Source of the DNA: an uncultured Christensenellaceae bacterium
GTDB lineage: Bacteria > Bacillota > Clostridia > Christensenellales > UBA3700
Assembly: GCA_944380305.1 (NCBI GenBank)
Contig: CALWHF010000002.1
Span: 105,154-169,153, forward strand
Reading direction: 5' to 3'
Length of the DNA: 64,000 nucleotides
Position 1 is the stretch's first letter. Each line of letters begins with the position of its first letter. Made by a program: the position numbers and the translations under genes. Positions 37,315-61,503 of this stretch are shown here, in pieces. The notes under the pieces were generated by a model. The model had not been told where the DNA came from and did not search any database. It worked only from the letters and a program-made list of their open reading frames with translations.

Positions 37315-37324
37315 GAGGCTGCCT

Positions 37325-38230: not shown

Positions 38231-38232
38231 CT

Positions 38233-39615: not shown

Positions 39616-39758
39616 AAACGGTAAAAAGAATTGTTGCGATTGTTCTTGTTATCGTTACGGCAGTAGCGGTCGGCTACCTCGTCTTTACGGGTAACCGACT
39701 GACTGTCGGTTCGGAACATACAACCGCTTATCTTTCAGAGAGGTGTTTATATGGATAA
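39612..39758 (+). CDS. Small single-pass membrane protein (48 aa)
   Basis: MKTVKRIVAIVLVIVTAVAVGYLVF... RBS AGGAGGAACAA. ATGA overlap with the upstream stop. Confidence 0.5.
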   Translation: MKTVKRIVAIVLVIVTAVAVGYLVFTGNRLTVGSEHTTAYLSERCLYG

Positions 39759-41859: not shown

Positions 41860-41874
41860 TACGGAGGTGATAAT

Positions 41875-42921: not shown

Positions 42922-43054
42922 ACAGCAGCTAAAGATTACGGTCAAAACCGAAAACCGCGCAACGGCTAAAGCGGAAGACCGCCCAAAGCGGTTCAGCGGG
43001 CGGCTCCGCTTCCGTTTGCGTTTCGTTTTACGTATCTTCCCTTTTCTGCCTTTT

Positions 43055-43157: not shown

Positions 43158-44618
43158 TTAATATTTTTTTGCTATCAGTGAAATAAATTTCTCTGCATCT
43201 TCTTTATTGTATTCTTGAGATATTATATCAAATACTCTTTCAAGTATTGTCTTTTGCTGTATGGTCAATTTATCATTGATGTTTAACGCACTATATTTTG
43301 TTAAAGTTTTTTGCATATGTAACAATTTTGCAATTGTTCCAAAAAAACTTTCATCTGCAACTGATGACGACTCATCTATATCCATAAGAACCGATTCACT
43401 CATTTCTTCCATCATTTCCAGTGTTTCTGTATTTAGTCCATTTATATCTTCATTATCTAAAATGCTAAGTTTATCCTTTGATAAGCTTCTTTCAGAAGAT
43501 TTTTTACGGATATCTTTAGTTATATTGCTTGCCCATTCCTCTATTAAATCTACAAAGCTATAATACGCATTATTTTTTTCAAAGTCATCTCTTCTAGAAT
43601 TAATTATTAGTTCAGGATCAATTATATAAATTTCACCAATAAGCCACCCGTTAAATCGTTCTTCTTTAAAAAAATGATTACAGGTCGATTTCCCACCGAC
43701 TAAAATATTGCCTTGACGAATTCGAATGCCTTTTATTTGATTATCCATAATGGTGCCCATATAATTTGTATTTGCATACCATAAAATAGCAGCCATTTTT
43801 TCGTCTTTACATAATGGAACAATTTCTACATCTTGTATTGTATCAAATATCTTTTTCACTCTATCAGCTACAAATGTGTTTTGATATGGTTTATATAGAT
43901 CTTGTTTTTCCCCATCCACATTTAAAATAACTCTATAGCAATCTATGTGGTATCCTATATTCTTAATTTTCTCATTGATTAATGAGCCCCAATTAAAATC
44001 ATTATTGAAAGGCAACGGACAATGTTGAACCAAATAATCTTTTACTTGTTCGCAATCTATAAGCTTATCTGCCATATCAACACCCTCAAGTATTACTTCG
44101 AAATAATGACTTGAAATTTTCTCAGGTGAAAATTCAATCGTAACGATTTCGTTGATTACAGATTTAATGCTCATTTCAGTTTCGTTACCCATAAGCAATA
44201 ATCGTTTTAGCTTTTTTGCATCAAATTTGATTTTTACTTTATTATTTTCATTTAATGCAGATGTAATAAAGGTTAAAGTATCACAATAACCCAAACCTGA
44301 CAATCTGCCAATTCCTCTAAACCCACGAGAAACTTGCCTGTGCTTTTGAGAGTTCCCAATATCCAATAAAGTTCTTACAGCTTTTTCGCTCCTAATTCCA
44401 ATGCCGTTATCTTTGATTGATATAGCTTTTTTATTTGTGTCAAGACAAACCTCAATCTTTAAATCATTTTGACCGCATAAACCTTCTTTAATTGTTTCAT
44501 CGAAAGAATCAACTGCATTTTGTATATACTCTCTATATAAGTCAAAAGGAGAAGCATACATTCCATTAGTCAAAGACTCCAACGTATACTTTCCAACCAT
44601 AAAATCCAATTCCATCAT
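43158..44618 (-). CDS. GHKL (Hsp90/MORC-like) ATPase, paralog 2
   Basis: YIQNAVDSFDE (N box), IKDNGIGI (G1) and GFRGIGRLSGLGY (G2). Clear paralog of 56955-58475, sharing VGKYTLESLT.GMY...YREYIQN.VD. Has a 4-nt ATGA overlap with the radical SAM gene. Confidence 0.8.
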   Translation of the reverse strand: MMELDFMVGKYTLESLTNGMYASPFDLYREYIQNAVDSFDETIKEGLCGQNDLKIEVCLDTNKKAISIKDNGIGIRSEKAVRTLLDIGNSQKHRQVSRGFRGIGRLSGLGYCDTLTFITSALNENNKVKIKFDAKKLKRLLLMGNETEMSIKSVINEIVTIEFSPEKISSHYFEVILEGVDMADKLIDCEQVKDYLVQHCPLPFNNDFNWGSLINEKIKNIGYHIDCYRVILNVDGEKQDLYKPYQNTFVADRVKKIFDTIQDVEIVPLCKDEKMAAILWYANTNYMGTIMDNQIKGIRIRQGNILVGGKSTCNHFFKEERFNGWLIGEIYIIDPELIINSRRDDFEKNNAYYSFVDLIEEWASNITKDIRKKSSERSLSKDKLSILDNEDINGLNTETLEMMEEMSESVLMDIDESSSVADESFFGTIAKLLHMQKTLTKYSALNINDKLTIQQKTILERVFDIISQEYNKEDAEKFISLIAKKY

Positions 44619-46648
44619 TCATCCTCATCAAAAAGTGTAATCTGATTGTACATTTGAGTTAGTGAGAGCTTTATTTGTTCAATCAAATACTCAACGCCAA
44701 CATTTTCATCTTTAGCTTGCTTTATCAGTGATGTTTTGAATTCTTCCATTTTGTCCAATAGTAATTCTTTTGCATTGGAAGAATCCAACTTTTTGATTGA
44801 ATCTATTAAAATCTTTTTCTCTTTCGATTTTAAAATACCTGCATTTATAAACAAATACGCACTTTTGACTATATCGTAATTAAACGTTTTAATATGGGTT
44901 TTAGCCTGTATTTTTGCCAAACTTCCTATAATAAATGGCGGTTCTGAGCCTTCAAAAGATAACTCGGCAAAAATATCATTTACCAATTTTTTTCTAAATA
45001 TTTTATACGCTCCTTCAATATAAGATAGTGGAATCCTTCCTGATGCTATATATCTAACCATTCTTATATAGATTAAAGGAAATTCATTACATATATAATT
45101 TACAATAAACGTAGCTTCATTTCCTTCCAACGTATTTAAAGATTTAAGCAACATTGGCAATGTAAAATAATGAATGAACAACTTTTTATGCAAATCATCT
45201 TTTAACGTAATATATTTTTCTATAGTATAGTTATTATCTCCAATTTCACGAATAAACGCTTCCTTATTATCTCCCAATTGATTAAACAATCTCGTCCATT
45301 CTGCTATATATTTTTGATTTTCGTTCCAAATTTTTAGTCTGCTTTCCAACTCAATTGGAGTTTCATTCTTATGTTCTACAAAATATCCTCTCCAACCAAG
45401 ATGTTCTTCTGGCATAGCTAAAAATTCAAGAAATTGTCTCACATCTTTTCCAAAATCTGCCTCAAAAAAAGAACGTGACGATACTCCTTTCCCTTGTGTC
45501 GGTATCATCATTCTTTGTAACGCTCTAAGATATTTCATATTCCATTTTTTACCAACATATCCTCTTTTTAAATCGGAAAGCGGTATATATCTCATTGGAA
45601 ATGAAAACAAAGTTATTTTATATCCTAATTCAGCACTTAATTCCTCACATAAATCTAACGATATTTTCATCCTGCAATACAAATCCTCAGGTGTATCGGC
45701 ATGATAATTATGACCTTTTCCTTTAAAATCATCTCCATTATAAAGCATATAATTTGACATGTGCGTAATACCATTTTCCGCACATAATCTTATCGCTTTT
45801 TTATATGCCTCAGCATCTTCAATATGGTCAAAAGCAATTCTAGCTGGACGAATTGCAAGTTCACCTAATCTTTTTGCTTTATGAGGAGTTAGAAGAAAAG
45901 CATCTAATCCTTGATTAAAATCAACATATCTTTTAACCTTTTTACCTGTTTTAGGATTTGTGTATGTAGCACCTTTGGCAAATCCCAACTCTTTAATCTC
46001 GTCAACAATTTTGTCAAAATCTGGCGATCTAAGAACATTATTATCCATTAAAAGCAAATCTTTTTTGGGACCAAATTTTTTTTCTATAAATCTTATGCTA
46101 TCTTTAATTGACAAATATGGAATATATTCTGGCTCAAGTGTTTGCACTGCACAAAATTGACACTTCATTCCACACCCTCTGGTCATATATGTGAAATAAG
46201 CATCGTGTGCAGGATAAACGTATTGATCCGAAATATCGTCTAATATACTATAATCCAAAGGCATAGTATCTACACATTCTTCACCTTTTAACCCCAATGT
46301 CCCCGTGTGATTTAAAAGTCCAGTATTATTTTTTACCGTAGGAAAATTTTCTGCAATAAGTTCTGGCATAAGAGTCGCCAAAATTCCTCCGGTATAAACT
46401 TGTGTCGGATCCTTAACTATGGATAAAGCATATTCAAGTGCCTTTTTTGTGTTTTCCCATTCAAAAGTAAAAAGCGTTGTTACATATACCCTATCCCATT
46501 TCTTGTCTTTGAATGCATCAGGTAACTTCCCTTTAGCAAATCTAACATAATCCCCGATAATATATTTATGAAAATACGATATTTTCATAAGACCCATTGG
46601 AGGATATTTATTTGAATATCCTGGTTCCAATAAAAGTATATCTGCCAT
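44615..46648 (-). CDS. Radical SAM enzyme with N-terminal B12-binding-like (Rossmann) domain
   Basis: YMTRGCGMKCQFCAV carries the CxxxCxxC motif. The N-terminal ILLLEPGYSNKYPPMGLMKISYF...VYVTTLFTF...TGGILATLMPE resembles the cobalamin-binding-type domain of class B radical SAM proteins. 677 aa. Confidence 0.82.
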   Translation of the reverse strand: MADILLLEPGYSNKYPPMGLMKISYFHKYIIGDYVRFAKGKLPDAFKDKKWDRVYVTTLFTFEWENTKKALEYALSIVKDPTQVYTGGILATLMPELIAENFPTVKNNTGLLNHTGTLGLKGEECVDTMPLDYSILDDISDQYVYPAHDAYFTYMTRGCGMKCQFCAVQTLEPEYIPYLSIKDSIRFIEKKFGPKKDLLLMDNNVLRSPDFDKIVDEIKELGFAKGATYTNPKTGKKVKRYVDFNQGLDAFLLTPHKAKRLGELAIRPARIAFDHIEDAEAYKKAIRLCAENGITHMSNYMLYNGDDFKGKGHNYHADTPEDLYCRMKISLDLCEELSAELGYKITLFSFPMRYIPLSDLKRGYVGKKWNMKYLRALQRMMIPTQGKGVSSRSFFEADFGKDVRQFLEFLAMPEEHLGWRGYFVEHKNETPIELESRLKIWNENQKYIAEWTRLFNQLGDNKEAFIREIGDNNYTIEKYITLKDDLHKKLFIHYFTLPMLLKSLNTLEGNEATFIVNYICNEFPLIYIRMVRYIASGRIPLSYIEGAYKIFRKKLVNDIFAELSFEGSEPPFIIGSLAKIQAKTHIKTFNYDIVKSAYLFINAGILKSKEKKILIDSIKKLDSSNAKELLLDKMEEFKTSLIKQAKDENVGVEYLIEQIKLSLTQMYNQITLFDEDE

Positions 46649-46677
46649 ATTTCTTCTCCTAATTCTTCTCCTAAGTT

Positions 46678-48327
46678 TTACTTAATAGTACTCAATATAT
46701 ACAAATAATATCTAGCTCTTGTTATTGCAATGTACTCTCTACTTCTTATTAAAACATCTTTTGGAAGTTTTTCGTATTCATTTTTTATATATATAATAAT
46801 ATCAGCTTCTAAACCTTTAAATTCTTCTACAGTTTTAAAGCAAATCTCATTATCATTAATTTCAGATAATTGTTTAAACGATATGTCATATCCTCCAATT
46901 CTAGTATCATCTGCCAACACAGAATCCTTAAAAGATTCATTCGAAAGAATGACAATAGATTTTGTTTGAACATACTCTTTCTTCGTAAGCCTATTTACTA
47001 TATTCGTTAATGATTTTAATGTTTGTTTACCACTCCTATACGTCATTATTTCTGGCTGAACTCCTAACAATGTATTTGCTATAGTATCTGAGCCAAGATT
47101 AGTTCTGTCCACTGCGCACTTGTAAATACATCCAGTATTTCTAATGTTATATCTTAGTATAAATGGCGGGTACTCAATTGCAAAAGCATTTTCAAAATGT
47201 TTTGAAAAAATATTTTGATTCTCGTCATAAAATACATATAAATTCGATTTTTTTTCATCTTTTAAAAGTGCTCTTACAGATAATCCCATATCTATATCAA
47301 AATCTTGCGCTTCATCGACAATTATCGAATCGTAACGCGTTTTAATTTTATCGTTATTAAGATAATCAAAACAACAGCGACTTCCGTTTTCATTAGTTGG
47401 GATTTTATAATAATCCTCTCCTAGAATTTCAAGCATTACTTCCTCGTATGTACAGCATTTAAACAATTCATCACTATCAACCTTCGAATTTACAAAATTA
47501 GCCAATTCTTTATTACAGCATAGAAACAAAACCTTTCGATTTAATATAATATCTCTTTTGGCTTTTTTTATTGCAATGTATGTTTTACCCGTTCCTGCTC
47601 CTCCGATAATTTTTACTTGTGGATAGTGAAATAAAATATCCAAAACACTATCTTGAACAAAATCTATTTTCGCAAATTCTTTTTCTTTTATTGGTATCAA
47701 TGCACCCGCAGCCGCTGATAAAGATATTCTCTTATTTACGACATTAATAAAACGATTTCTTTGGTCAATAGAAAATGGCGTATTGATATTTCGATTATTT
47801 TTCCAATAATGAAATATTTCATTAATTTTTTTTGCAAGACTTTTCATGTCTTTTATATCTATGGTAAGATCATCAGGAGCATCTTGAGCTAAAGAATTAT
47901 CTATAGCATAATTTGGAAAAGCAACAGCATATCCATATACACCTTTAAAATTCAAATTAAACTCTTCCGAAAAATAATCGTAGAAATGCCTCATACTTTT
48001 TTCAGCTTGATAATAAGGACTGCATTTTAATTCTCTTCTAGTGTTTGTATCTCCGTCGTATGTTTCGTTAAGATACCATATACCATTATCGATTTCAATG
48101 CCTGTTCCACCTTTTACTTCAATTGTTAAAAAACCGAATTGCGGATCAAAAACAAGAAAATCACATTCGCTATCTACTCGTTTATTTTCACTGTCTTTTT
48201 CAAACCATCTAATTGAATAAAACACCTGCATTCTATCCGGAAGCTGATCTTGAAATGCATAATATATGTGTTTTTCGCTTAAAGTGCAATCGTAATTTGC
48301 CAAGTCAGACGGATGCATTATTGCCAT
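46678..48327 (-). CDS. NERD-type PD-(D/E)xK nuclease fused to SF1 (UvrD-like) helicase (Nhi-like architecture)
   Basis: ECDFLVFDPQFGFLTIEVKGG (NERD), IIGGAGTGKTYIA (Walker A), IIVDEAQDF and AITRARYYLYIL. ATG 48327 follows GGGAGG and lies 2 nt after the upstream stop. Confidence 0.83.
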   Translation of the reverse strand: MAIMHPSDLANYDCTLSEKHIYYAFQDQLPDRMQVFYSIRWFEKDSENKRVDSECDFLVFDPQFGFLTIEVKGGTGIEIDNGIWYLNETYDGDTNTRRELKCSPYYQAEKSMRHFYDYFSEEFNLNFKGVYGYAVAFPNYAIDNSLAQDAPDDLTIDIKDMKSLAKKINEIFHYWKNNRNINTPFSIDQRNRFINVVNKRISLSAAAGALIPIKEKEFAKIDFVQDSVLDILFHYPQVKIIGGAGTGKTYIAIKKAKRDIILNRKVLFLCCNKELANFVNSKVDSDELFKCCTYEEVMLEILGEDYYKIPTNENGSRCCFDYLNNDKIKTRYDSIIVDEAQDFDIDMGLSVRALLKDEKKSNLYVFYDENQNIFSKHFENAFAIEYPPFILRYNIRNTGCIYKCAVDRTNLGSDTIANTLLGVQPEIMTYRSGKQTLKSLTNIVNRLTKKEYVQTKSIVILSNESFKDSVLADDTRIGGYDISFKQLSEINDNEICFKTVEEFKGLEADIIIYIKNEYEKLPKDVLIRSREYIAITRARYYLYILSTIK

Positions 48328-48329
48328 TA

Positions 48330-50210
48330 TTATTCCTCCCAAAAACCTATCGTTTTCTTTTTTGTTTCCTTATCTACATGCCCGATAATATAAGAACGGT
48401 CAAGATCTTTATTAAAATGCACACATGAAACTTCATTTAAAAATAAACACCCCGTACAGGCTTTATATCTTTCTATGCAAATCGGATCAAAAACACATTT
48501 TTGTGCCAATGCAGCTGCTCTAAAAATCCATTTGTCAAAATATGCTTCAAATAAATTTCGAAGAGAACCCAAGCTAAAACCTTGAGAATTCTGACAATAA
48601 ATCAAAATAGCTGGCACGCCTGCAAATATATACTCAGACAATGAATCTTTCCCTAATCCCCCAATTTCAGCTGCTGCTTTAATTAATAAATGAGATATAG
48701 AATGAATCAACCTGTATACATGAAATGTTTCCGGTGTCTCTGTTTCTTCTATTGATGTAAATTTACGAACGCTATCGGGTTTTATATTGTTAATGAACCA
48801 TAATTTTAATTCATATTCCGACTCCAAATTTGGAGCAAATTCTTTTTCAACAAAATTGTTCTTTAACAACCATTCCATAATCATTCTTCTATCTAACTCC
48901 AACAAAATGCCTTCTGTGTTCGTTTTTATAGCATAAATATTCTTTTTGCCTCTTACCTCTTCTTTTAAGGCATGCAATTGCACTCCGGATTCATATTCAC
49001 TTTTTACGCGTGTAAAGCCATAAGAACAGGCAATAAAAGGGATTTTATCGCAAACTTGAGCCGATTTTATACCAAATTTATGCGCAATATCCCAAAAGCA
49101 TTCTGGATTAGCATTTGTATTTAACAATTTTGCTACTTTTATTGCATCATCTAATGTGGATACATCATGGAGATCTTTGACCATATTGTATTCTAAAATA
49201 GATTCTGACACTTTTGCTACATTTGCCATAGTATTAATTAATTGAACTTTAATTTCGTCAACTATTTTATTGTAAGAGTTTCCACACTTTTTTTCAGCAA
49301 TTATTAATGCAGCTATTTTAGCCTGCGTTTCGTCTTTTAACGCAGTTAATAACATTTTATAATGTTCATCAAATATTTTTTGAAACTCGTCATCATCCGT
49401 AGTTATACCTTCTTTAATTATTTTATTCAATTCTTCTTTTGTAATTTTCTCTAACCAATGCGCAAGAACAATAAATTTCCCATAATCTTTTACATTTATA
49501 AAATCTTCAAGCTTTTCGTCAATTAGATCAATCAAACTTAAACTATATGTAAAAAATTGTGAAGGATCTAGCGCATGTTTTGGTCCTAGTTTTCTTCCAC
49601 AAATAGGGCAAGTAACAGTCATATTTATTTTCCTATTACACCCCTGAGCAGTACATATAAAGTTATATTTTCCATCCCATTTTATATACTTACTACCGTG
49701 AGTAGGACACTCAACAGGATGCTTATCTGTAGCATAACCGCATTGGCAAAAATATATTTGTCTAAACTGTGTGAGTTCCACTCCACACGAATAACATTTA
49801 TGATGTCTTTTATAGTCTTCGGCACTTTTAAACTGATAAACTTTTTTACATTTAGGGCAATAAAAAGTTAAAGGGCTTATGCTTGCCACAATTCCTCTTT
49901 CCTCATCTGATGCCTTTGGAGTTAATACATCACAATTATTTTCGTTTAACTCTGTTCCAAAACCAATCGTTGGCGGAAGCAAGGGATTTCCGTATAAACC
50001 TTGTTTATTAAACGATTCTACTTCTTGATTAACCGTCCTGATTAATCTTTTACTATTAATTCCAACTAATTTTTCACTGTTCCATCTTTCAACTTTCGCA
50101 ATATATTGCTTACGTTCTTTTCCTCGTACTGAAAAATCTATCCATGATTCTGGTAAATATTTGTATAACGATTGGGTTTTTCCTCGTTTCATTTGTCTAT
50201 CTGTACTCAT
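48330..50210 (-). CDS. drmB: DUF1998-domain protein, DrmB-like
   Basis: Central Cys-rich zinc-ribbon cluster (CPKCKK...CYSCG...CPTHG...CPICG). C-terminal HSISHLLIKAAA...CVFDPICIERYKACTGCLFLNEVSCVHFNKDLDRS is the DUF1998-type motif. Lies 15 nt downstream of the helicase gene. Confidence 0.7.
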   Translation of the reverse strand: MSTDRQMKRGKTQSLYKYLPESWIDFSVRGKERKQYIAKVERWNSEKLVGINSKRLIRTVNQEVESFNKQGLYGNPLLPPTIGFGTELNENNCDVLTPKASDEERGIVASISPLTFYCPKCKKVYQFKSAEDYKRHHKCYSCGVELTQFRQIYFCQCGYATDKHPVECPTHGSKYIKWDGKYNFICTAQGCNRKINMTVTCPICGRKLGPKHALDPSQFFTYSLSLIDLIDEKLEDFINVKDYGKFIVLAHWLEKITKEELNKIIKEGITTDDDEFQKIFDEHYKMLLTALKDETQAKIAALIIAEKKCGNSYNKIVDEIKVQLINTMANVAKVSESILEYNMVKDLHDVSTLDDAIKVAKLLNTNANPECFWDIAHKFGIKSAQVCDKIPFIACSYGFTRVKSEYESGVQLHALKEEVRGKKNIYAIKTNTEGILLELDRRMIMEWLLKNNFVEKEFAPNLESEYELKLWFINNIKPDSVRKFTSIEETETPETFHVYRLIHSISHLLIKAAAEIGGLGKDSLSEYIFAGVPAILIYCQNSQGFSLGSLRNLFEAYFDKWIFRAAALAQKCVFDPICIERYKACTGCLFLNEVSCVHFNKDLDRSYIIGHVDKETKKKTIGFWEE

Positions 50211-50225
50211 AGTCGGCTCTCCATT

Positions 50226-53200
50226 TTATCCTAATTCTATTATCAATTGCTGATCGGTATCTCTTAAATTGTTCATTATTCTATACCCTAAAATATTAAA
50301 ACCTTCAAAGATGTTTTCGTTTAACCAGTTTCTATCAATAATCGAATCAAAAAAATTGTTAACGAAATCATCTATGCTTTCCTTATATTGATTTCCAACA
50401 TCAACAATTACCTCACCCGACATACATCCATACGCTGAATATAATTCATTTTTAACATTTTCTTTATTGATATTTCCTTCTTTAATAGCCTTTTTAATGT
50501 TTTTCATGTAAAACAGATTGCCAAAAACATATTGCAATTCTGGATCATATTTGTTTAAAAGTAAACCTGAAAAAATACCTGGCAACGTTTCATTAATTGC
50601 TTTTGTCGCCCATCTGTTTATAGGAACTGGTTCTACCATAATATCCTTGAACTCATGAAATTTTATAAAATTCCTCAAGTAACTCTGATCAGTTTCTCTT
50701 GTAGGTCTAATTATATCAATCACAATACTTGAATATTTTCGTCCTGTTCTTGAATATGCTTGAATATATTCTGCAGTATTCCCAGGTATTCCATAGAAAA
50801 ACATAATGTTAAACCTGTCTGCGTCCACACCATGAGAGATCATTGATGTCGCAGCAATAAGATTAACTCCTTTAAAAACATCTTTAGCGTTTTCAACTTG
50901 AGCAAGTACTTCTCTTACATCTTGAAATGTCTCATCTCCTGTCATTTTGCGAGTTATAAATGGAACGATGCCTTCCTTTTGAAGCTCAAAATTAATAGGC
51001 GTTTCCAATGCACCTTCCACATTATTGCTATCTCTTTTTACATTGTTATACTCAAGGAAAATCCAATAATCTTCCAATATTTTTTGTACATCTTGTATTG
51101 AATCTATCCCTATATTCGGAATATCCAATACAAGCTGTGGATTAGCCAAATATCTGTATACGACTTGCCTCATATATTTTAATGAATAAACCACGGAATT
51201 TATAATTGCTTTTCCGTAAGGCGCATATCCAAGAATTAATCGTTGATTGTCATTTTCATCAATGAATGAATAAAAATTCTTGTTTAAATATGGCGATTCA
51301 CAGGGAAACCTTAAAGGATCTTTTCCGTATAATTGAGTTATTTGCGCATCGTATGAAGATATCGTTGCCGTTGCTCCAATTATTTTTATTTTTCTTTTTG
51401 ATTTGGAAACATTTTGCACAAAATAATCAATAAATGATTCATAATGAGAAGCATATGTTCCCAATGATTCTCTAATCAGATGCAATTCGTCTTGAATAAA
51501 TAATGTTGGAGCGGGATCATACATATCAACTTCTTGATAATTCTGAACTTCTACATCACAAAATTCTTTACTTACTATACAACGACAAGATGAAGTGTAT
51601 CCGTGTTTAGGGCATCGCATAGTAGCTCCTGAGAGTATGTTCCGAAAATTCGGATTGTTTCCTAAAATTGCTAATTTATCTACCGTACTTATAATTGCTG
51701 AAGGCAAATACCTATATATCTCACTATCAACCATATAAATAGGCAGTATTTTACCTGAAGTGCATTCAGGATTGTCACAATAATGGATTAATCTGTAAGT
51801 ATTTTCATCAAAATCCAAATGAACCGTCTGTTTTCCACAAAACGGACATATATCAATGATCCGTTCTTCATCCTTCTCGTCCTGAGACATATTCCTATAG
51901 CTTTTTACTCTAGCCTCACCTATTTTATTTGGAGTATTGTTATCTCCGACAAAATACCCTAACGAAAACTCTTCTGTATCCTTAATCTCACTTATTGAAC
52001 GTCTTAATAATTCTGCTTGTGCTAAAGTATTTGCTAAACGTTGCACTTGCTGCACTGAAAGAAGACGTAGAGGATATCTTAAAATAGAAGTTACTCCACT
52101 ACTTTTACCTCTAAAGCGGTCAAAAAACAAATTAAATACTAATACTCCTAAAAATGCTTCTGTTTTTCCTCCTCCTGTTGGAAAATACAGTAAAGATACC
52201 CATCCCAAAGTTGTTCTTTCTTTCTCTTCATTAGTCATTAAATTTGGATCACAAGCAACTATGTCTGGTATAAGTGAAACGATGTAAACTATTTGAAATA
52301 GTCTCCATGTATCATATTTTTTCGCAGTGTTTAAAAAAGCTTTATTCATATAAATAAAACTTTTTATAACCATTGGATAATCTTTTATTACCTCTATACC
52401 AAATTTAAATCTATTAATTTCTTGTTCAAATTCTTTTATTTCACTTGAAAACTTTTCACGCCCTGCCTCTGTCAATGAATTCTTCTTTCCCTCGAAATCG
52501 GATTTCCATTGTTTTAGTTCAGAAATCATTTTATTTTTAATTTCTTGTAAAATATCAATAGGTTTGTCTATCAAATCTTGAAATTTGACTGCTAATTTAT
52601 CATTTGTCAATAATCTCTTTTGAATATACGTAGGTAAATGCTCAGTCATTATAGCATTTCTATCTTTATCAAAAGTTATTGAACAATTTGCTCCTATCGC
52701 TTTCTGTTCTTTATTGTATTTGTAATCATCCCTAAAATAATCCAAAACTATAGGGGCGTAATTTGCACCACTTAAAATTACTTCTAACCCGGAATTGAAT
52801 AATGTTTCAATAGAAGTTTTATCTTTATCCTTATTATTAGATTGGTGTGTTTGTAAATTAGATTGTACAGCTGACGTATTAACTAAATTTACACTTATTA
52901 AATATCTGTTTTTAATCTTTTTAACCTTAACGTCAATATATACACTCCAATTTTGGTTAATAATAGGCTCTTTTTTTGCTTTCGTATTTAAAAATTTTGC
53001 ATATGTTTCATCGGATAACAGATCTTCAATAGATGTTTGTTCATACACAACATATTTATATCTAAGCGCGTCTGCATCTAGCCCATCTTTTATCGTTTCC
53101 AAATAACTTTGCAATTGCTGATTATGATAATGATTTTCATCCATTATTCCATAATTCAATAGTTCATCATAAATTTCTAACAATAAAAAGTCAATATTAA

Positions 53201-53666
53201 ACTTATCCTTATGTATTTGAATTTTTTTGTAAACAGGAACTAATTTTATTTTTACTTTCTTTATATCAACAGGATTTTTCTTGTATTCATCTACCAATGT
53301 TTCGAAATCAAAAAAATGCTTTTCAAATCTTGAATTAATTTCATCAAGAAAAGCTTGCCTTTGCTGATCTAATGTCGGATATACACGATAATAAAAATCC
53401 CCTTTAGGATATATACAAAGTTTTGCATTATTAAATTCATGTTCTTCGACATAAAAATCCATACCAACAGATTCGATAAACACGTCTGAGTTGTATCCAC
53501 TTTTATTACTATTGCTCTTGTTCGAGAGTAATTTCCCCACAAAAAATACATTTTCAGGATTTTCATCGACAACAAAATCTGAGTTATCCCCTGTTATTTT
53601 CCCTTTAAAATCCTTTAATATTTGTGAAGCTAATTTCTGTCTAGCTTTAGACAATTCTTTTCCCAT
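50226..53666 (-). CDS. drmA: Large SF2 DEAD/DEAH-type helicase, DrmA-like
   Basis: FPTGGGKTEAF (motif I), FIQDELHLI (II), IIGATATI (III) and AATSMISHGVDADRF...QAYSRTGRKY (V/VI). Zn-ribbon inserts are present (CPFCGK...CDNPEC). The N-terminal region of about 470 aa is unassigned. Confidence 0.72.
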   Translation of the reverse strand: MGKELSKARQKLASQILKDFKGKITGDNSDFVVDENPENVFFVGKLLSNKSNSNKSGYNSDVFIESVGMDFYVEEHEFNNAKLCIYPKGDFYYRVYPTLDQQRQAFLDEINSRFEKHFFDFETLVDEYKKNPVDIKKVKIKLVPVYKKIQIHKDKFNIDFLLLEIYDELLNYGIMDENHYHNQQLQSYLETIKDGLDADALRYKYVVYEQTSIEDLLSDETYAKFLNTKAKKEPIINQNWSVYIDVKVKKIKNRYLISVNLVNTSAVQSNLQTHQSNNKDKDKTSIETLFNSGLEVILSGANYAPIVLDYFRDDYKYNKEQKAIGANCSITFDKDRNAIMTEHLPTYIQKRLLTNDKLAVKFQDLIDKPIDILQEIKNKMISELKQWKSDFEGKKNSLTEAGREKFSSEIKEFEQEINRFKFGIEVIKDYPMVIKSFIYMNKAFLNTAKKYDTWRLFQIVYIVSLIPDIVACDPNLMTNEEKERTTLGWVSLLYFPTGGGKTEAFLGVLVFNLFFDRFRGKSSGVTSILRYPLRLLSVQQVQRLANTLAQAELLRRSISEIKDTEEFSLGYFVGDNNTPNKIGEARVKSYRNMSQDEKDEERIIDICPFCGKQTVHLDFDENTYRLIHYCDNPECTSGKILPIYMVDSEIYRYLPSAIISTVDKLAILGNNPNFRNILSGATMRCPKHGYTSSCRCIVSKEFCDVEVQNYQEVDMYDPAPTLFIQDELHLIRESLGTYASHYESFIDYFVQNVSKSKRKIKIIGATATISSYDAQITQLYGKDPLRFPCESPYLNKNFYSFIDENDNQRLILGYAPYGKAIINSVVYSLKYMRQVVYRYLANPQLVLDIPNIGIDSIQDVQKILEDYWIFLEYNNVKRDSNNVEGALETPINFELQKEGIVPFITRKMTGDETFQDVREVLAQVENAKDVFKGVNLIAATSMISHGVDADRFNIMFFYGIPGNTAEYIQAYSRTGRKYSSIVIDIIRPTRETDQSYLRNFIKFHEFKDIMVEPVPINRWATKAINETLPGIFSGLLLNKYDPELQYVFGNLFYMKNIKKAIKEGNINKENVKNELYSAYGCMSGEVIVDVGNQYKESIDDFVNNFFDSIIDRNWLNENIFEGFNILGYRIMNNLRDTDQQLIIELG

Positions 53667-53687
53667 AATACACTCCTTTATAACATA

Positions 53688-54980
53688 TCATTTGTTTATA
53701 ATAAAAGATTTTACAGTATTATATTTAATCCCTACTGATTGAAATATTTTATCGTAGGCTTTATCCTGATCAATATTAATTTCGTCTCCATATTTGCTTA
53801 CTATATTTAACGAGAGAATCAATTCTTCTATAGAATTAACAAAAAAAGGCAAATCTTCTGCCAAAACTACAGCATCCTCATAAGGCTGCTTAAATATATG
53901 TTCTACTGATTCATAGTTTATTATTTCTTTAGGAAGAATTTTCTTTGCGCAGAACAAAATTAAATAATCTCTCAAATTATCTATTTCGTTACTATATGAG
54001 ATATTTATAACTTGTTTAAAGATATAATGCCAGTCATTTAAGCAAGCAATATTTATTTCTTCTAACTTTTTAGTGAAATTTAATATATCATCTTCTCCAT
54101 TTTCTCCGCAAGAAATAATTTTGTTAGATATTGCTTCTTTAAGAGTTTCAATTATCTCCTCACAAGAAAGCTGTTTAAAACTTTGTTTGTTATCTCTACG
54201 TTCTTCGCCATAAACTGTATCCAAATCTAAATCGTAAATTTTTCCTTTTATTTCTCCATTAAAGTCAAAATAATCAACTGCTACGGCACTTTTAGATGAA
54301 AATTTTCCAGTTCCTACGATGCCTTCTCCCGCAAACACAACGTCTTCAACTTCAGTGTCGTTTATGTCCATTGACTTTTTTGCTATTAATTTTCCTCCGC
54401 AATATAAATTTTTACATTTTTTTATAGATTCTACTATTAAATCGTTGCCAACTTCAATATGTTCTGCAATTATATTTCCTTCACATAGCAAATTATTGTT
54501 GCAATTTATTTTTTCAGCCTTTATATCTCCTAAAACGGTTAAATTTCCTTTAACTTCTATTTCTTTAGCATTTACATTTCCAATAATAGTAAGATTGTAA
54601 CATGCTCGAATATACTCTGATTTCATATCATCGCCTATAATGGTATACGACTCGTTAAACATTAAAGGAACATTTGAAGAAAAAGCCTGAATCAAGTTTT
54701 TCCCGCCGATTTGAATCTCGGAAGAATCGTATTGTTTTACGCTTGCAGTTGTATTGATATCGTTATTATCTTCCTCTTTTGAAGCTAAAACTTCTTTGAC
54801 CTTGTCATCTTCAATTACTGAAATCAAACCTTTATCAAATGCTTCCATTGCAATGATCTTTTCTCCATTTGCAAATTGGATAATAATTGCGTTTGATGCA
54901 TCATGATGCTTTTTATATGTACCAACTCCAAAAGTTCTATGTTTTAATTTTGTTATATTTTCTATTAAATGCATTTTCAT
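53688..54980 (-). CDS. Protein with N-terminal UvrD/PcrA-CTD (Tudor)-like motif, central bactofilin-like beta-helix repeats and helical C-terminus
   Basis: LKHRTFGVGTYKKHHDASNAIIIQFANGEKIIAMEAF fits the V-x-H-x-x-FG-x-GT...F..GEK pattern. The repeats are NLTIIGNVNAKEIEVKGNLTVLGDIKAEKINCNNNLLCEGNIIAEHIEVGNDLIV. Confidence 0.5.
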   Translation of the reverse strand: MKMHLIENITKLKHRTFGVGTYKKHHDASNAIIIQFANGEKIIAMEAFDKGLISVIEDDKVKEVLASKEEDNNDINTTASVKQYDSSEIQIGGKNLIQAFSSNVPLMFNESYTIIGDDMKSEYIRACYNLTIIGNVNAKEIEVKGNLTVLGDIKAEKINCNNNLLCEGNIIAEHIEVGNDLIVESIKKCKNLYCGGKLIAKKSMDINDTEVEDVVFAGEGIVGTGKFSSKSAVAVDYFDFNGEIKGKIYDLDLDTVYGEERRDNKQSFKQLSCEEIIETLKEAISNKIISCGENGEDDILNFTKKLEEINIACLNDWHYIFKQVINISYSNEIDNLRDYLILFCAKKILPKEIINYESVEHIFKQPYEDAVVLAEDLPFFVNSIEELILSLNIVSKYGDEINIDQDKAYDKIFQSVGIKYNTVKSFIINK

Positions 54981-54984
54981 CCCC

Positions 54985-56949
54985 TCACGTTATAGATTCT
55001 TCTAATAATCTGACATATTCAGATTCGGTTTTGTTTTCAGGTAAAATAATATGTAAAACTTCTTTTGCTCTCGTACAAGCGACATATAAGTTTCGTATAT
55101 CAGAATGTATTTGATCTAGGGTTTCAACAATTTTTTCATCATCGACATTTTGCAAATTTGGCTTTTTCGTTTGTGCATAAAGCCCCAATGGTTTTATTCC
55201 ACAAATAATAGCTGCTCGAAAATCCAAACCTAAGACAGAAGCGAATTTAATTAATTTTACCCCGTCGCTATGCCCGTACCTGACAGCCCATTCATTATCC
55301 GTAGAAAACATCTTGCTATATGGAATTCCGTTTTGCTCTAACTTTGACTCCAATGGCGATTCTAAATCATATTTATTATCCAGCCAGCCATCAATTTTAG
55401 GCCTATAATGAGAATTATACATAATAACCGCAATTTCATCGTATGGTATTTTGTAGAAATCATGGATCTTTTTAATTGACTCTACTACCATTTTCGCTTC
55501 TTCCGAATTGCACGGTGTCTTAAGTTTTTTTATTTCAACACCTTGTCCGTGTGACACAGATTGTCCTCTTAAAAACATATCAGGATCTAAAGCATAGTTA
55601 TCTTGAAAAGATAATAAATACTTTTTTGCATTGCTAACAAATCGATTAATGTATTCGTTTATCTCTACGCAATTCCTGTAATTCTTTTCAATTCTAATGT
55701 TTTTATTTCCACCTCTATAATTGGGATAACCCTCACCCACATTCCATGGTGCTTTTCCGTGTTTCTGCTGATTCTTTAACTTTTGTGTTTTATCTCCACA
55801 TATTACAAAAAGGTGATCATTGCTTTCTTTATTTTCTAATAAATTAAAACATAATTTATACCATTCAGGGTTAAACTCTTGCACTTCGTCAATGAATATG
55901 CCATAAAATCTATCTTTTATTTGACCTTTATTAAATCTTACTATAGCCGTATCTACCCATCCGTCAAAATCGCCATGAGCAACATTAAATCCGTTATTTA
56001 CAAGTAATGTCTTACACAAAACATGAAAAGTCATACATTGAACATTTTTAGCTCTCAATCCTGCTTTATCAATAAACCACTCGTATAACGAACGGAGATT
56101 ATCATTATAACAAGTAATAAGAAACTGTTTTTCAGGATTCATTGCCGCTGCCTTAAAACACTTTGATATCAGCAACACACTTTTTCCCGATCCTGCACAA
56201 GCAAGAATGAGCTGTTCGCCTTTGTTGATTTTATTTACAATATTTATTTGATTTTCATCCAACCTAAATGCCTTAACAACCGAATCATCTTGTGTTACTA
56301 CTAGCATTTCGTCATCCACTCCTGCACTTGACTGTACCGACTTATTAGACACCACTCTAATAGTAACATATTCAGGAGCAATTCTTTGAAGAATTGAGTT
56401 TATATTAGCGTCACTTATTTTGATTCTTTCATTTGACACTTGAGTTATGGGGTATTTTAAATATTTATATACTGCATTTTCAAAAAATGACTCCCTTGAT
56501 TGTGCCAAATTCTCAGAAAACATGCATTTTTCTTGTATGATTTTTTTTAGTTCTTCATCTTTTATACTTGCTACGATATCTTTATAGCTCAGTTTTGGAA
56601 AAACCAATACAATATTAATTGCAATTTTTAATTTTGAGTCACTCCCTACCAACAGTTTATTCCCCGACAATCTGTCTTGGATAGTTTTTGCAACATTCGG
56701 ATATACCATATTTGCATAAACAGTCATTGTTTGTTGGAACATACTAACGTCTTCAAATAAATCGAAAAATTTATACATTACTATTCCTTCTGTCGTTAGT
56801 AAAACATGCATATAATCGTTTTGTTGCATAGCTGGATTAACTCGCAACAAAAAATAGCCATAATCCTCGCTAGACATTGCATGACGAAGAAAGACTTTTT
56901 CAAAACGTGATAATTCTATTTGCTGATAATCAGACGGCAATATCTCCAT
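54985..56949 (-). CDS. SF1 (UvrD-like) helicase with degenerate NERD-like N-terminus
   Basis: ILACAGSGKSVLL (Walker A), IFIDEVQEF, CGDKTQKL and VACTRAKEVLHIIL. The N-terminal DYMHVLLTTEGIVMYKF has the NERD layout but Y-K replaces E-x-K. Confidence 0.8.
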   Translation of the reverse strand: MEILPSDYQQIELSRFEKVFLRHAMSSEDYGYFLLRVNPAMQQNDYMHVLLTTEGIVMYKFFDLFEDVSMFQQTMTVYANMVYPNVAKTIQDRLSGNKLLVGSDSKLKIAINIVLVFPKLSYKDIVASIKDEELKKIIQEKCMFSENLAQSRESFFENAVYKYLKYPITQVSNERIKISDANINSILQRIAPEYVTIRVVSNKSVQSSAGVDDEMLVVTQDDSVVKAFRLDENQINIVNKINKGEQLILACAGSGKSVLLISKCFKAAAMNPEKQFLITCYNDNLRSLYEWFIDKAGLRAKNVQCMTFHVLCKTLLVNNGFNVAHGDFDGWVDTAIVRFNKGQIKDRFYGIFIDEVQEFNPEWYKLCFNLLENKESNDHLFVICGDKTQKLKNQQKHGKAPWNVGEGYPNYRGGNKNIRIEKNYRNCVEINEYINRFVSNAKKYLLSFQDNYALDPDMFLRGQSVSHGQGVEIKKLKTPCNSEEAKMVVESIKKIHDFYKIPYDEIAVIMYNSHYRPKIDGWLDNKYDLESPLESKLEQNGIPYSKMFSTDNEWAVRYGHSDGVKLIKFASVLGLDFRAAIICGIKPLGLYAQTKKPNLQNVDDEKIVETLDQIHSDIRNLYVACTRAKEVLHIILPENKTESEYVRLLEESIT

Positions 56950-56954
56950 AAAGT

Positions 56955-58475
56955 CTATTTCCTGTTTAGTATTTTTATTATCTCATCAATAATCTCATCC
57001 ACTAATTGTTTTGACAATTTTTGCGATAAAATATCACTCACTATTGCAAGAATTTTTTTCGATTTTTTATCTATTCCTGAATTGATTTTATTTATTTTAT
57101 AATTACTACTCTCGCTAACTTCTAAAATGGTTTCATCTATTTGTTTTTGTAAAACATCTTTTTGAGGTTGTAACTCTGGTCTAACTTTTGTTTTTTGTAA
57201 CGCTTCCCCTGCTTCTTTGAGCCTATCTAATAGTCTTGTTTTATCAACAGTCGAATTAAAGCCCTCTTCCATAGCAACTCCTGCATCTCCCACTTGGCGA
57301 GACACATCGTTTAAAACTTTCGTAGAGATATCATTTCTTAAAGATGAGGCTTCTCGTATTTTTTTAGTGATTTCAGAACCTATACTATCTTGCAACTTCT
57401 CAATAAACTTAAAGTATTCAGATGTTTGTTCAAAATCATCCCTTCTTGCATTTGGAATTAGCTTATCTGTTACAACAAATATTTCGCCTTGCGTCCAGCC
57501 ATTAAATCTTGCTTCTTTGAAAATTGAATTTAACGTTCTGTTATCGCCAATTAAAATATTTCCTTTTCTAACTCTTATACCGGAAATTTCATGTTCTGAG
57601 ACAGAGCCATACCAATTACAATCACCATACCACCCCAAAGCGTATAATTCGTCTTCAACTATAACTTTAAAATAGTTCATTTTTAATATCTCATCGTTTT
57701 TCATTCTGTTGCGATCAGAATGATATCGATGCCTGTTTGGCTTGTAGATTGGTTCTAAATCCTCTGGATTTTCTCCAATAAAAATTGGAAACTCTTCCAC
57801 TTTATACCCATTATCTTGAAGAAAAGCATGTAGACTTGAGCTGTAATAGAACTGTCTTGTTTTGTATGGCAAAGGAGCTACTTGAGAAACATAGCTACGC
57901 ACAACATCGATATTTAACAAATCTGAAAATGAGCTTACATTAATCATTTCAACGGTGAAATAATGCTTTTCAGATTTTTCATATTCTTGCTTAACCGTGG
58001 TAACAACATTGAGAACTGCGGATAAATCTAAATCCTCATTTGCTCCAGGAACTAGTAAGTGTCGCAACTTTTTACAGTCGTATGACACAACAGTTTTTAA
58101 ATCTTCCCCATCTGCTGAAGTTGTAAAAACAAGCATATCGCAATAACTCATTCCCCCCAAACGGCCTATGCCCCTGAAGCCTCTATTGTTTGAATGTCGT
58201 TTTTGAGAACTACCGATATTCATTAAAGTTGAAATCGCTTTTTCTGACGATATTCCTGTTCCGTTGTCTTTTATAGAAATTTTAGAATTTTCCTCGTCAA
58301 CAATAATATCTATACGCATACTCTGAGGCTCTATCAAATTCTGAGAGACTGCGTTTTCAAGTGCATCTACACTATTTTGAATATACTCTCTATAAACAAT
58401 TTTCGGATCTGAATACATTCCTGTTGTTAAAGATTCTAAAGTGTATTTGCCTACTTGTATATCAGTATTTAACAT
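56955..58475 (-). CDS. GHKL (Hsp90/MORC-like) ATPase, paralog 1
   Basis: YIQNSVDALE, IKDNGTGI and GFRGIGRLGGMSY motifs. ATG 58475 follows AAAGGAGAAAAGC. The stop lies 5 nt before the helicase start. Confidence 0.8.
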   Translation of the reverse strand: MLNTDIQVGKYTLESLTTGMYSDPKIVYREYIQNSVDALENAVSQNLIEPQSMRIDIIVDEENSKISIKDNGTGISSEKAISTLMNIGSSQKRHSNNRGFRGIGRLGGMSYCDMLVFTTSADGEDLKTVVSYDCKKLRHLLVPGANEDLDLSAVLNVVTTVKQEYEKSEKHYFTVEMINVSSFSDLLNIDVVRSYVSQVAPLPYKTRQFYYSSSLHAFLQDNGYKVEEFPIFIGENPEDLEPIYKPNRHRYHSDRNRMKNDEILKMNYFKVIVEDELYALGWYGDCNWYGSVSEHEISGIRVRKGNILIGDNRTLNSIFKEARFNGWTQGEIFVVTDKLIPNARRDDFEQTSEYFKFIEKLQDSIGSEITKKIREASSLRNDISTKVLNDVSRQVGDAGVAMEEGFNSTVDKTRLLDRLKEAGEALQKTKVRPELQPQKDVLQKQIDETILEVSESSNYKINKINSGIDKKSKKILAIVSDILSQKLSKQLVDEIIDEIIKILNRK

Positions 58476-58650
58476 GCTTTTCTCCTTTCGTTCATATAAT
58501 ATTACTTTTTTACTTCTAGTTTTGGTTGACAACAAAATCCTATATAGGTGCTATAATAAACAATAATTGTGCTTTAATTAAACTTGAAAACTCAATGACC
58601 GATTTTTAACAGCCCCCTTTTCTTCCAATATTTAAATTATAGCAATTTAG

Positions 58651-59160
58651 TTATATTTTTTCAATATGTTTCATATAATAATTATAATTATAATGTGAAA
58701 ACAAATTTATTATTGACTTTTGCTTTGATACAGCATAATGATATGCGATTTTTGTTCCGCTTCTCGCATTCATAGTTTGCACATAATTTTCATCATAATA
58801 AAAAATACAAATATCTGAAATATCTATCATATAAAAATTGCGTTTTACATAAGACGCCTTTCCTGCAAGTTTTACAGAATCAGGCATATATGTTTCATCG
58901 TATATTGTTAGAAGATAATTTTTGTAATCTTCATTTATGTATTGATATTCAGCTCTAACATAAACACTTTTTATATGTGGCCTTATTTCTTTTAACTCCG
59001 TTACCGCTTTTAAGCATATTGTATCGAACTGACTTTTACTCCCGAATAAAAATGTGTTTACTTCATTGGAATCAATTAAATATAACAAATATTCTTTTAA
59101 CCACTGATAGAAACTTTTATCTATCTCGATATCCCGATGTCCAATAAAAGTAGCGATCAT
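58651..59160 (-). CDS. SLOG-superfamily (DUF1273/YpsA-like) protein
   Basis: MIATFIGHRDIEI...FLFGSKSQFDTICLKAV... is a typical DUF1273 N-terminus. RBS GAGGTG. Confidence 0.6.
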   Translation of the reverse strand: MIATFIGHRDIEIDKSFYQWLKEYLLYLIDSNEVNTFLFGSKSQFDTICLKAVTELKEIRPHIKSVYVRAEYQYINEDYKNYLLTIYDETYMPDSVKLAGKASYVKRNFYMIDISDICIFYYDENYVQTMNARSGTKIAYHYAVSKQKSIINLFSHYNYNYYMKHIEKI

Positions 59161-61500: not shown

Positions 61501-61503
61501 GTT

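Follow-up and report, generated by a model that had tools for sequence, protein, structure and literature searches.

The stretch analysed here, 64,000 nucleotides of contig CALWHF010000002.1 from an uncultured Christensenellaceae bacterium (the window), carries on its minus strand an eight-gene cassette that is very probably one conserved system derived from DISARM. In the coding direction, its products are a GHKL ATPase (GHKL1), a UvrD-like superfamily 1 (SF1) helicase (SF1a), a protein with Tudor and beta-solenoid domains (X), a DrmA-like superfamily 2 (SF2) helicase, a DrmB-like protein, a NERD nuclease fused to an SF1 helicase (NERD-SF1), a radical S-adenosylmethionine (SAM) enzyme (rSAM), and a second GHKL ATPase (GHKL2); the coordinates are collected in Table 1. 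Comparison with related loci places NERD-SF1 in the slot of the DISARM phospholipase D (PLD) protein DrmC, and the rSAM-GHKL2 pair in the slot of the DNA methyltransferase (MTase). We propose, with about even confidence, that the cassette is a restriction system in which the rSAM module would act as a self-marking DNA modifier.

The initial annotation of this DNA had left it undecided whether the eight genes represent one new multi-component system or two to three stacked ones, and had suggested a survey of their co-occurrence and order. Loci were sampled with three anchors, i.e., rSAM, DrmA in genomes, and X, and their six-frame open reading frames (ORFs) were scored with the proteins of the window. 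A metagenome scan with a DrmA alignment gave 80 loci, from 68% down to 27% identity, which were classed by family hidden Markov models (HMMs) and Pfam. All eight genes are present on 20 other contigs, and on 18 of these the order is the same (loci L005-9, L012, L022, L023, L028-30, L034, L038, L041, L045, L047, L065, and L069). The flanks are unrelated and consist mostly of mobile elements. In the remaining two loci, L037 and L044, the rSAM-GHKL pair has been relocated as a block and lies at the opposite end or on the opposite strand. The DrmA proteins of the 20 full cassettes share 45-68% identity with that of the window, no value being reported for L022 and L023. In an additional 16 cassettes, the contig or the retrieved sequence ends before the cassette does, and what they contain agrees with the eight-gene set. 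Among cassettes that reach the relevant slot, all eight genes are found in 20 of 22; the exceptions are L040, where a Mu-transposase/TniB-type transposon (16602-19549) inserted after DrmB interrupts the cassette, and L036, for which there is no explanation. In L065, each cassette gene is split into several ORFs, which reflects either pseudogenisation or an error-prone assembly. The hosts include Faecousia, Acutalibacteraceae, Gemmiger sp. An50, and Dysosmobacter.

Because the same eight genes recur on about 20 independent contigs, the arrangement is not due to chance. The cassette is very probably one functional unit built from modules and not a set of stacked systems. GHKL1 is present in every cassette whose sequence extends that far. 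Neither GHKL1 nor X was found apart from the cassette in any sampled locus, and the loci anchored on X were all full cassettes. The catalytic motifs are all intact and invariant, including the NERD D..D..ExK signature, the Walker A and B motifs of both SF1 proteins, the Bergerat motifs, and the CxxxCxxC of rSAM. Within cassettes, the identities of rSAM and GHKL2 co-vary independently of DrmA; that of GHKL2 tracks rSAM and not DrmA, and the trees of the two GHKL proteins are incongruent. The co-variation and the incongruent trees point to an exchangeable module, which is how modification and specificity modules behave. Regulators with WYL (5 loci) or WCX (3 loci) domains recur in the flanks of the cassettes (L005-L069); regulators of this type are often found beside defence systems.

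All eight ORFs are intact within positions 43158-58475. They form the nearly gap-free series originally described, and the spacing computed from the ORF coordinates (5, 4, 21, 15, 2, 29, and -4 nt) reproduces all seven junctions. The cassette was also rightly called AT-rich, with a GC content of 0.28-0.33 (about 30% for the island) against 0.42-0.54 in the surroundings. Longer TTG starts are possible for GHKL1 (at 58535) and NERD-SF1 (at 48342); alignment of the orthologs favours the ATG starts. The top promoter-like match on the coding strand lies just upstream of GHKL1, and promoter-like sites across the region and inside the cassette occur at chance level. This site and a terminator-like hairpin downstream of GHKL2, both of them consensus matches only, bracket the cassette, an arrangement that is compatible with a single predicted transcript for the eight genes. 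In other cassettes (e.g., L005 4513-4776 and L023 6263-6466), a regulator of about 70 aa of the XRE/HTH_26 type is often located directly upstream of GHKL1. The window has no XRE regulator; an unrelated 169-aa ORF without a family match (58651-59160, minus strand) is found there instead, and its 3' end overlaps the best promoter-like site.

On sequence grounds, the identities of DrmA and DrmB are real, and the DISARM-like core named in the initial annotation is upheld. DrmA matches the PADLOC DrmA model (E value 1.5e-169) and the solved DISARM DrmA (7s9v; E value 3.8e-50), and its GGGKT and DELH motifs are invariant. Against NCBIfam DISARM_DrmAS it scores 375 bits, under the equivalog cutoff of 950. 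DrmB matches PADLOC DrmB (E value 5e-62) and NCBIfam DrmB_fam (E value 2e-23; 83 bits against a cutoff of 240), and contains CxxC pairs together with a C-terminal CTGC...C motif; the Pfam DUF1998 model is not among its matches at E <= 0.01. Since both proteins fall under the NCBIfam DISARM cutoffs, they are assigned to a divergent subfamily. The DrmB gene is always separate from DrmA and directly follows it, as in DISARM.

Neither an MTase nor a PLD domain was detected by Pfam, PADLOC, or NCBIfam in the eight proteins, nor was either found in those ORFs of the island that were examined, from 27 kb to 64 kb, in line with the earlier failure to recognise such motifs in the translations. The PLD reference from canonical loci has no match in any cassette of the window's DrmA clade. 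There is no PADLOC match for DrmD or DrmE, and the DrmE reference (Pfam DrmE_C) matches only distant canonical loci. A methylase situated just outside the island had been named as an observation that would speak against a new system; none is present in the window, and 22 of 23 related cassettes have none nearby. Likewise, no recurrent MTase or PLD was found among the 71 ORFs flanking the 23 cassettes. The exception is L022, whose upstream MTase and PLD-helicase belong to a separate Type IV/Type I restriction-modification (R-M) pair; the defence island around this cassette contains a Type IV methyl-directed restriction endonuclease and a Type I-like MTase-S fusion.

Slot replacement becomes apparent when loci are ordered by the identity of their DrmA to that of the window. 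At identities of 34% or less, the loci are canonical DISARM, with the order DrmE-DrmA-DrmB-DrmC (PLD) and with or without an N6 MTase. At 35-38%, a sister clade has the order SF1a-DrmA-DrmB-NERD-SF1 accompanied by a D12 Dam-like N6-adenine MTase. At 45-68%, the rSAM-GHKL2 pair follows NERD-SF1, and the Dam-like MTase is found in none of the loci. The sister clade occurs on 15 metagenome contigs (L048-L053, L055-L057, L061-L064, L068, and L082; an example is L056 7999-20047). Its MTase is present in all 12 loci with enough sequence, immediately after NERD-SF1 in 10 and upstream in 2, and none of its loci has rSAM, GHKL, or X. Six of them also carry a 790-aa DndB-domain protein, the place of which is taken by an unannotated protein of about 640 aa in L057 and L061 and by a 917-aa protein in L062. 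The sister system, which has neither PLD nor DrmD/DrmE, itself appears to be an undescribed DISARM variant, and no published name was found for it. From this comparison it follows that NERD-SF1 occupies the DrmC slot, and that rSAM-GHKL2 occupies the MTase slot, the pair and the Dam-like MTase being mutually exclusive.

In agreement with its first description as a NERD nuclease joined to an SF1 helicase, NERD-SF1 scores 30.3 bits against PF08378 (cutoff 22.1) and matches PADLOC RTasNERD-Hel (E value 4.9e-69). Its nuclease signature D...D...ExK, which reads DSE[CS]DF...[ILV]E[VC]KGG, is invariant in 10 orthologs, as are the Walker A and B motifs. In SF1a, a gene that is kept in the sister clade, Walker A (AGSGKS) and Walker B (DEVQ) are invariant, and the PADLOC match (C3a187, E value 3e-26) covers the helicase part only. 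The N-terminal domain of SF1a had been described as a degenerate NERD-like region. A Pfam sub-domain scan revealed no family match and nuclease residues are missing, so that this label is unproven. For both SF1 proteins, the PADLOC matches are restricted to generic or candidate helicase models. The apparent symmetry of the gene order around DrmAB, pointed out in the initial annotation, holds for the GHKL proteins and is superficial for the helicases: GHKL1 and GHKL2 are full-length paralogs (35% identity, E value 2e-103), and SF1a and NERD-SF1 share 24% identity in the helicase core only, which excludes recent paralogs mirroring the GHKL pair.

The third gene product, X, was correctly read as a Tudor-like/beta-helix protein. 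Its AlphaFold2 model (pLDDT 87) comprises a Tudor domain (residues 11-56), a linker, a beta-solenoid (82-257), and a helical domain (273-429). The Tudor region (pLDDT about 90) resembles the C-terminal Tudor domain of PcrA/UvrD, and its Foldseek matches are to UvrD1, PcrA, and UvrD (9dqs, 5dma, 7egt, 7egs, and 6yi2; probability 0.99-1.0, target TM 0.51-0.72), with no Pfam sequence match for a Tudor domain. Other matches of X are weak (Bactofilin and FapA) or, with PADLOC, marginal and partial (E value 6.7e-3). X is the fastest-evolving gene of the cassette, with 33-41% identity where DrmA has 66-68%, and the Tudor domain is absent from some orthologs. Pfam scans of the N-termini of SF1a and DrmA and of the C-termini of rSAM, the GHKL proteins, and X gave nothing significant.

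The product of the rSAM gene has a Rossmann-like N-terminal domain, a radical SAM barrel, and a variable helical C-terminal domain. It scores 32.9 bits against PF04055 (cutoff 29.5). The cluster motif CxxxCxxC (CGMKCQFC, residues 159-166) is kept in 99-100% of the aligned members of 90 divergent relatives, where the three cluster Cys are the only conserved Cys; this excludes a RlmN/Cfr-like enzyme or a MiaB-like enzyme with extra Cys. The polar motifs DNN, DFNQGxD, RxAxD, and SFPM are conserved as well. Of the original label, a B12-domain-type radical SAM enzyme, the radical SAM part stands and the B12 part is weakly supported: the N-terminal domain matches PF02310 (B12-binding) marginally (E value 0.041; 14 bits against a cutoff of 32), and the top Foldseek match, the B12-dependent methylase MgmA (9ccb, E value 2.8e-4), has a low TM-score and is weak, with MiaB next. 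A sequence-profile search against the PDB found nothing, and the protein belongs to no PADLOC family at E <= 0.01, to no NCBIfam family, and to no viperin model.

The two GHKL proteins match PF13589 above its cutoff (E values 5.6e-14 for GHKL1 and 2.2e-10 for GHKL2). The Bergerat motifs comprise E30/N34, DNGxG, and GFRGIGR, in which E30, N34, D70, N71, G74, G102, and G104 are invariant among 13 diverse members. The ATPase domain is closest to HtpG/TRAP1/Hsp90, and the alignment is confined to residues 10-133 approximately; against the Hsp90-type NCBIfam models the scores are 50 and 39 bits, with cutoffs of 455 and 371. The motifs of the middle and C-terminal regions (GIRxRxGNIxIGD, RFNGW, and PNARRDxFE) are specific to the family and have no match to known proteins. 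With PADLOC, GHKL1 has a marginal, partial match to a Type II restriction-enzyme model (E value 2.4e-5) and GHKL2 has none. A third GHKL ATPase of the window (27003-28982) shares 18% identity with GHKL1/2 and was rejected as a member of the same family. It has a long C-terminal region with an IIVELKAP stretch, gives no PADLOC match, and stands alone beside an AbiE pair.

Outside the cassette, the rSAM-GHKL pair is an independent, exchangeable module. The rSAM family has more than 7,500 relatives (1441 representatives reach E <= 1e-3, and 260 clusters formed at 50% identity reach E <= 1e-30), which share a conserved core of 425 residues and differ in their C-terminal domains. In distant members, which have no DrmAB, a GHKL gene of the family found in the cassette still adjoins or overlaps the rSAM gene. 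In L016, the pair is accompanied by NsnB/NsnC-like genes and a second GHKL. An overlapping DndB/DGQHR-rSAM-GHKL triad, the genes of which are annotated just as radical SAM protein and ATP-binding protein, is carried by plasmids of Novosphingobium (pNL1, SARO_RS17510-17535), Rhizobium leguminosarum (pR132505, RLEG_RS34110-34140), and Roseomonas (p2-AD3). The neighbours of the triad are a PIN-like protein and a second GHKL, or a ParB-N protein and a DEAD helicase. Over the catalytic core, the plasmid rSAM is 38% identical to that of the window, and its C-terminal domain is shorter. On pNL1 and pR132505, the second GHKL paralog lies beside an effector-type protein. Loci L024 (pNL1 114946-125348), L026, and L027 contain the PIN-like gene with its GHKL, the triad, the ParB-N and DEAD helicase genes, and a second large DGQHR protein. 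This alphaproteobacterial plasmid set looks like an unnamed modification/restriction-like system, present in cultured and sequenced strains. One rSAM with two GHKL paralogs, one of them beside an effector, recurs in three unrelated settings. In L017/18, the neighbours of rSAM are a DpdB/DndB-like protein and a gene of 352 aa, which matches PADLOC candidate families and is not matched by the GHKL1/2 queries. Marinitoga camini virus 1, a temperate phage, encodes an rSAM homolog limited to the core (L025, 37383-38465; 31% identity over residues 1-397), with no GHKL and adjoining HerA and a Rad50/Mre11-associated exonuclease. It could be a counter-defence or phage-modification gene.

An independent module outside the cassette would also be expected if the latter were a stack of two or three systems, namely GHKL1-SF1a-X, DrmA-DrmB-NERD-SF1, and rSAM-GHKL2. 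The positions of the pair in L037 and L044 and its incongruent phylogeny are in keeping with this, and defence islands commonly stack systems. We nevertheless consider a stack decidedly unlikely. The eight genes stay together in 20 of 22 cassettes despite unrelated flanks, GHKL1 and X are not found elsewhere in the sampled loci, and SF1a and NERD-SF1 remain with DrmAB in the sister clade, which makes them core members. Moreover, there is no space for separate regulation between genes that lie 2-29 nt apart or overlap by 4 nt. In a stack, DrmAB would be left without a modification partner, which the sister clade has in all 12 loci with enough sequence.

In the mechanism that we propose for the single DISARM-derived system, the cassette would be a mobile anti-invader system in which two canonical modules have been swapped. 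DrmA and DrmB, by homology, form a helicase core that senses single-stranded DNA (ssDNA). NERD-SF1, as its position and intact motifs suggest, would replace the PLD protein DrmC as the DNA-degrading effector, with SF1a as a putative second motor. The translationally coupled rSAM-GHKL2 pair would replace the MTase and write a radical-SAM mark on host DNA, a prediction based on its slot and its neighbourhoods, with GHKL2 as a probable ATP-driven DNA clamp or loader for rSAM. More speculatively, GHKL1 might be a reader or clamp on the restriction side that couples the modification status to SF1a, X, and DrmAB, and the Tudor domain of X might anchor the machinery to RNA polymerase or to a repair factor. 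Again speculatively, X would be optional, and the speed at which it evolves suggests selection on an interface. Incoming DNA that is unmarked and exposes ssDNA would activate DrmAB, whereupon NERD-SF1 would unwind and cut it. In DISARM, DrmAB is activated by ssDNA with a 5' overhang, cognate methylation represses it, and the system can do without DrmC (PMC9142583). For the family at large, we think it possible, at somewhat less than even chances, that rSAM-GHKL is the writer of a previously unknown radical-SAM DNA modification that would provide the self-mark of an undescribed R-M-like class, with the paralogous GHKL clamps as partners of writer and reader, and with DrmAB/NERD, PIN-like proteins with DndB, or ABC-type ATPases as effectors.

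Several observations weigh against a DNA-marking role. The slot replacement is positional and not functional evidence, and the gain of rSAM-GHKL2 coincides with that of GHKL1 and X, so that the three could together be a different kind of add-on. The rSAM model is of moderate quality (pLDDT 72) and its Foldseek matches are weak and of the generic radical SAM/TIM-barrel kind, pointing to no particular substrate. The family has no auxiliary-cluster Cys and no Cys pair of the RlmN/Cfr type, and with cobalamin-binding evidence that is marginal, this pattern points to no particular chemistry. The Hsp90-type affinity of the GHKL ATPase domain is compatible with a role directed at proteins. Radical SAM enzymes are not known to write an epigenetic mark directly on DNA. 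A GHKL-rSAM pair also stands alone between housekeeping genes (L019-21). Finally, DISARM can discriminate by DNA structure and restricts phages that have no methylation sites (PMC9142583), for which reason a self-mark may not be obligatory and rSAM could serve another role.

One such role would be that of a second effector, in which rSAM-GHKL2 would make an antiviral nucleotide analogue, as viperin does, or attack invader DNA by radical chemistry, and DrmAB, sensing structure, would need no self-mark. That radical SAM enzymes can act as effectors in defence is known from viperins. The partial discrimination of DISARM by 5'-overhang ssDNA, the lack of a methylase-type Cys pair and of a clear B12 motif in rSAM, the pairs that have no recognisable restriction partner, and the core homolog beside HerA and an exonuclease in Marinitoga camini virus 1 all agree with this role. 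We regard it as rather unlikely, given that the pair lies in the slot of the Dam-like MTase, with which it is mutually exclusive, and not in that of the nuclease. In addition, proteins of the DndB/DGQHR/ParB type, which go with DNA-modification systems, are repeatedly associated with it, rSAM has no match among the PADLOC viperin models, and a separate nuclease is usually present already (NERD here and PIN-like elsewhere).

Alternatively, rSAM might act on protein or RNA, for example by maturing a component of the cassette, and the Hsp90-like GHKL proteins might be chaperones or assembly factors. This would accommodate the affinity of the ATPase domain to HtpG/TRAP1/Hsp90 and the structural neighbours of rSAM, namely MgmA, which methylates a protein, and the tRNA methylthiotransferase MiaB; many radical SAM enzymes with Rossmann-like N-terminal domains act on peptides. 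The likeness to Hsp90 is, however, limited to an ATP-binding domain of about 120 residues, with NCBIfam scores far under the cutoffs, and the cassette encodes neither a precursor peptide nor a glycyl-radical partner. The partners of the pair vary between DrmAB, PIN-like proteins, an NsnB/C-like ATPase, and none, with DNA as the sole common theme, and in the cassette the pair substitutes for a DNA methyltransferase. A protein or RNA substrate is therefore very unlikely in our estimation.

With regard to known systems, DISARM (Ofir et al. 2018) reportedly combines DrmA, DrmB, and DrmC with DrmMI (N6A) or DrmMII (C5) and with DrmD (SNF2) or DrmE. The cassette resembles it in its separate, neighbouring genes for DrmA and for DrmB, the DUF1998 protein, in the nuclease gene directly after DrmB, and in its defence or mobile-element context. 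It differs in having NERD-SF1 instead of the PLD protein DrmC, rSAM-GHKL2 instead of a DNA MTase, and neither DrmD nor DrmE, and in the addition of a UvrD-like helicase, a Tudor/beta-solenoid protein, and a second GHKL. The sister clade (DrmA 35-38% identical) shares the four-gene helicase/nuclease core in the same order, but uses a D12 MTase, often with DndB, and lacks rSAM, both GHKL proteins, and X. The plasmid DndB/DGQHR-rSAM-GHKL loci have no DrmAB; their effector is PIN-like or a ParB-N protein with a DEAD helicase, and DndB/DGQHR precedes rSAM. Like ARMADA, BRIGADE, TALON, and Druantia, the cassette is built on a YprA/DrmA-type helicase with a DUF1998 domain (10.1101/2025.09.15.676423). 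In those systems, by contrast, helicase and DUF1998 are fused, the nuclease is usually fused at the C-terminus, and the partners are BrxHII/PglX, deazaguanine genes, or TPR/TBP proteins. Split DrmA and DrmB genes are characteristic of DISARM among YprA-family systems, in which the nuclease swaps between PLD and PD-(D/E)xK types, NERD being found in TALON (10.1101/2025.09.15.676423). The same survey contains neither rSAM nor GHKL in its text or supplements, and mentions solely "many uncharacterized DISARM-like classes" (10.1101/2025.09.15.676423). With prokaryotic MORC/paraMORC GHKL proteins and Hsp90/HtpG, GHKL1 and GHKL2 share the Bergerat fold, intact motifs, and an association with helicases and nucleases; they differ in that the N-terminal 120 residues or so alone match known GHKL proteins.

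The set does not decompose into named systems. Nhi is not among the PADLOC matches of the cassette proteins, and for Gabija the GajB models match only short helicase-motif stretches (E value 1e-11 or weaker), with no GajA; viperin is likewise missing, and rSAM and GHKL2 have no PADLOC match. The composition was already held to be unnamed in the initial annotation, and we found no curated model or literature description of it. The rSAM, GHKL, and X proteins are not named by any curated model of PADLOC 2023, Pfam 2025, or NCBIfam June 2026. Full-text literature searches gave no description of DrmAB with radical SAM/GHKL, of DndB/DGQHR with radical SAM, or of radical SAM with GHKL/MORC/HATPase_c_3, and a reappraisal of Dnd is silent too. 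The cassette is accordingly an undescribed DISARM-like variant, and the rSAM-GHKL module would be categorically new if rSAM writes a DNA mark. The known self-marking of R-M-like systems consists of methylation by SAM methyltransferases, phosphorothioation (Dnd/Ssp), and deazaguanine insertion (Dpd). A radical SAM enzyme in the MTase slot of a DISARM-type machine would, if true, point to an epigenetic DNA mark of a new chemical class and to a novel enzyme activity. The Dam-type sister clade and the rSAM-type clade provide a natural A/B comparison for how DrmAB reads modification. As the family is large and common on conjugative elements of gut Clostridia, it probably shapes the flow of phages and plasmids in the microbiome of humans and animals. 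Beyond the cassette, the rSAM-GHKL(-DndB) module is unannotated; it occurs in Proteobacteria, Bacteroidota-like contigs, and phages, and could yield tools, e.g., new DNA-modifying enzymes.

Table 1. Features of the cassette and of the surrounding region, in positions of the window
Feature	Position	Strand	Evidence or remark
Promoter-like site, sigma-70-like, TTGAAA-17-TATAAT, extended -10 TG	58636..58664	-	11/12 consensus positions; consensus match only
GHKL1, GHKL (Bergerat-fold) ATPase, putative effector side	56955..58475	-	PF13589
SF1a, UvrD-like SF1 helicase, 205-aa N-terminal domain without family assignment	54985..56949	-	Pfam UvrD-helicase, UvrD_C
X, Tudor + beta-solenoid + helical domain	53688..54980	-	AlphaFold model, Foldseek
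DrmA-like SF2 helicase	50226..53666	-	PADLOC DrmA, 7s9v
DrmB-like DUF1998 protein, N-terminal zinc ribbons	48330..50210	-	PADLOC DrmB
NERD-SF1, NERD nuclease fused to SF1 helicase	46678..48327	-	PF08378
rSAM, radical SAM enzyme	44615..46648	-	PF04055
GHKL2, GHKL ATPase, putative rSAM partner, 4-nt overlap with rSAM gene	43158..44618	-	PF13589
Terminator-like hairpin + T-tract, downstream of GHKL2	42953..42967	-	Consensus match only
tRNA-Arg (CCT), left edge of AT-rich region	26801-26875	+	
Third GHKL ATPase, 659 aa	27003-28982	-	PF13589 3.2e-8
AbiEii nucleotidyltransferase toxin + DUF6088 (AbiEi-like) partner	29137-30655	-	PF08843 6.9e-27
Tyrosine integrase	31550-32965	-	
Four consecutive ORFs (384, 301, 462, 702 aa), then Rep ORF2/G2P-like protein	36160-42921	+	No Pfam/PADLOC match for the four ORFs
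Rep ORF2/G2P-like replication protein	41875-42921	+	
PcfJ-like protein beside PcfK-like + MutS domain I protein	60184-62424	-	PF01624 1.2e-18

The cassette is located in a larger AT-rich or mobile region, which includes conjugation genes of the PcfJ/PcfK type and at the left edge of which the GC content drops at about 26.4 kb. The tRNA-Arg and the tyrosine integrase suggest a tRNA-targeted integrative element, which may extend past the right end of the window. The AbiE pair, a Type IV toxin-antitoxin/abortive-infection pair, forms a separate patch of 29% GC. The ORFs that end with the Rep ORF2/G2P-like protein may serve the element as its module for replication or mobilisation. On the side of the cassette that faces the conjugative element, the combination of PcfK-like and MutS domain I sequences in one protein represents an unusual fusion.

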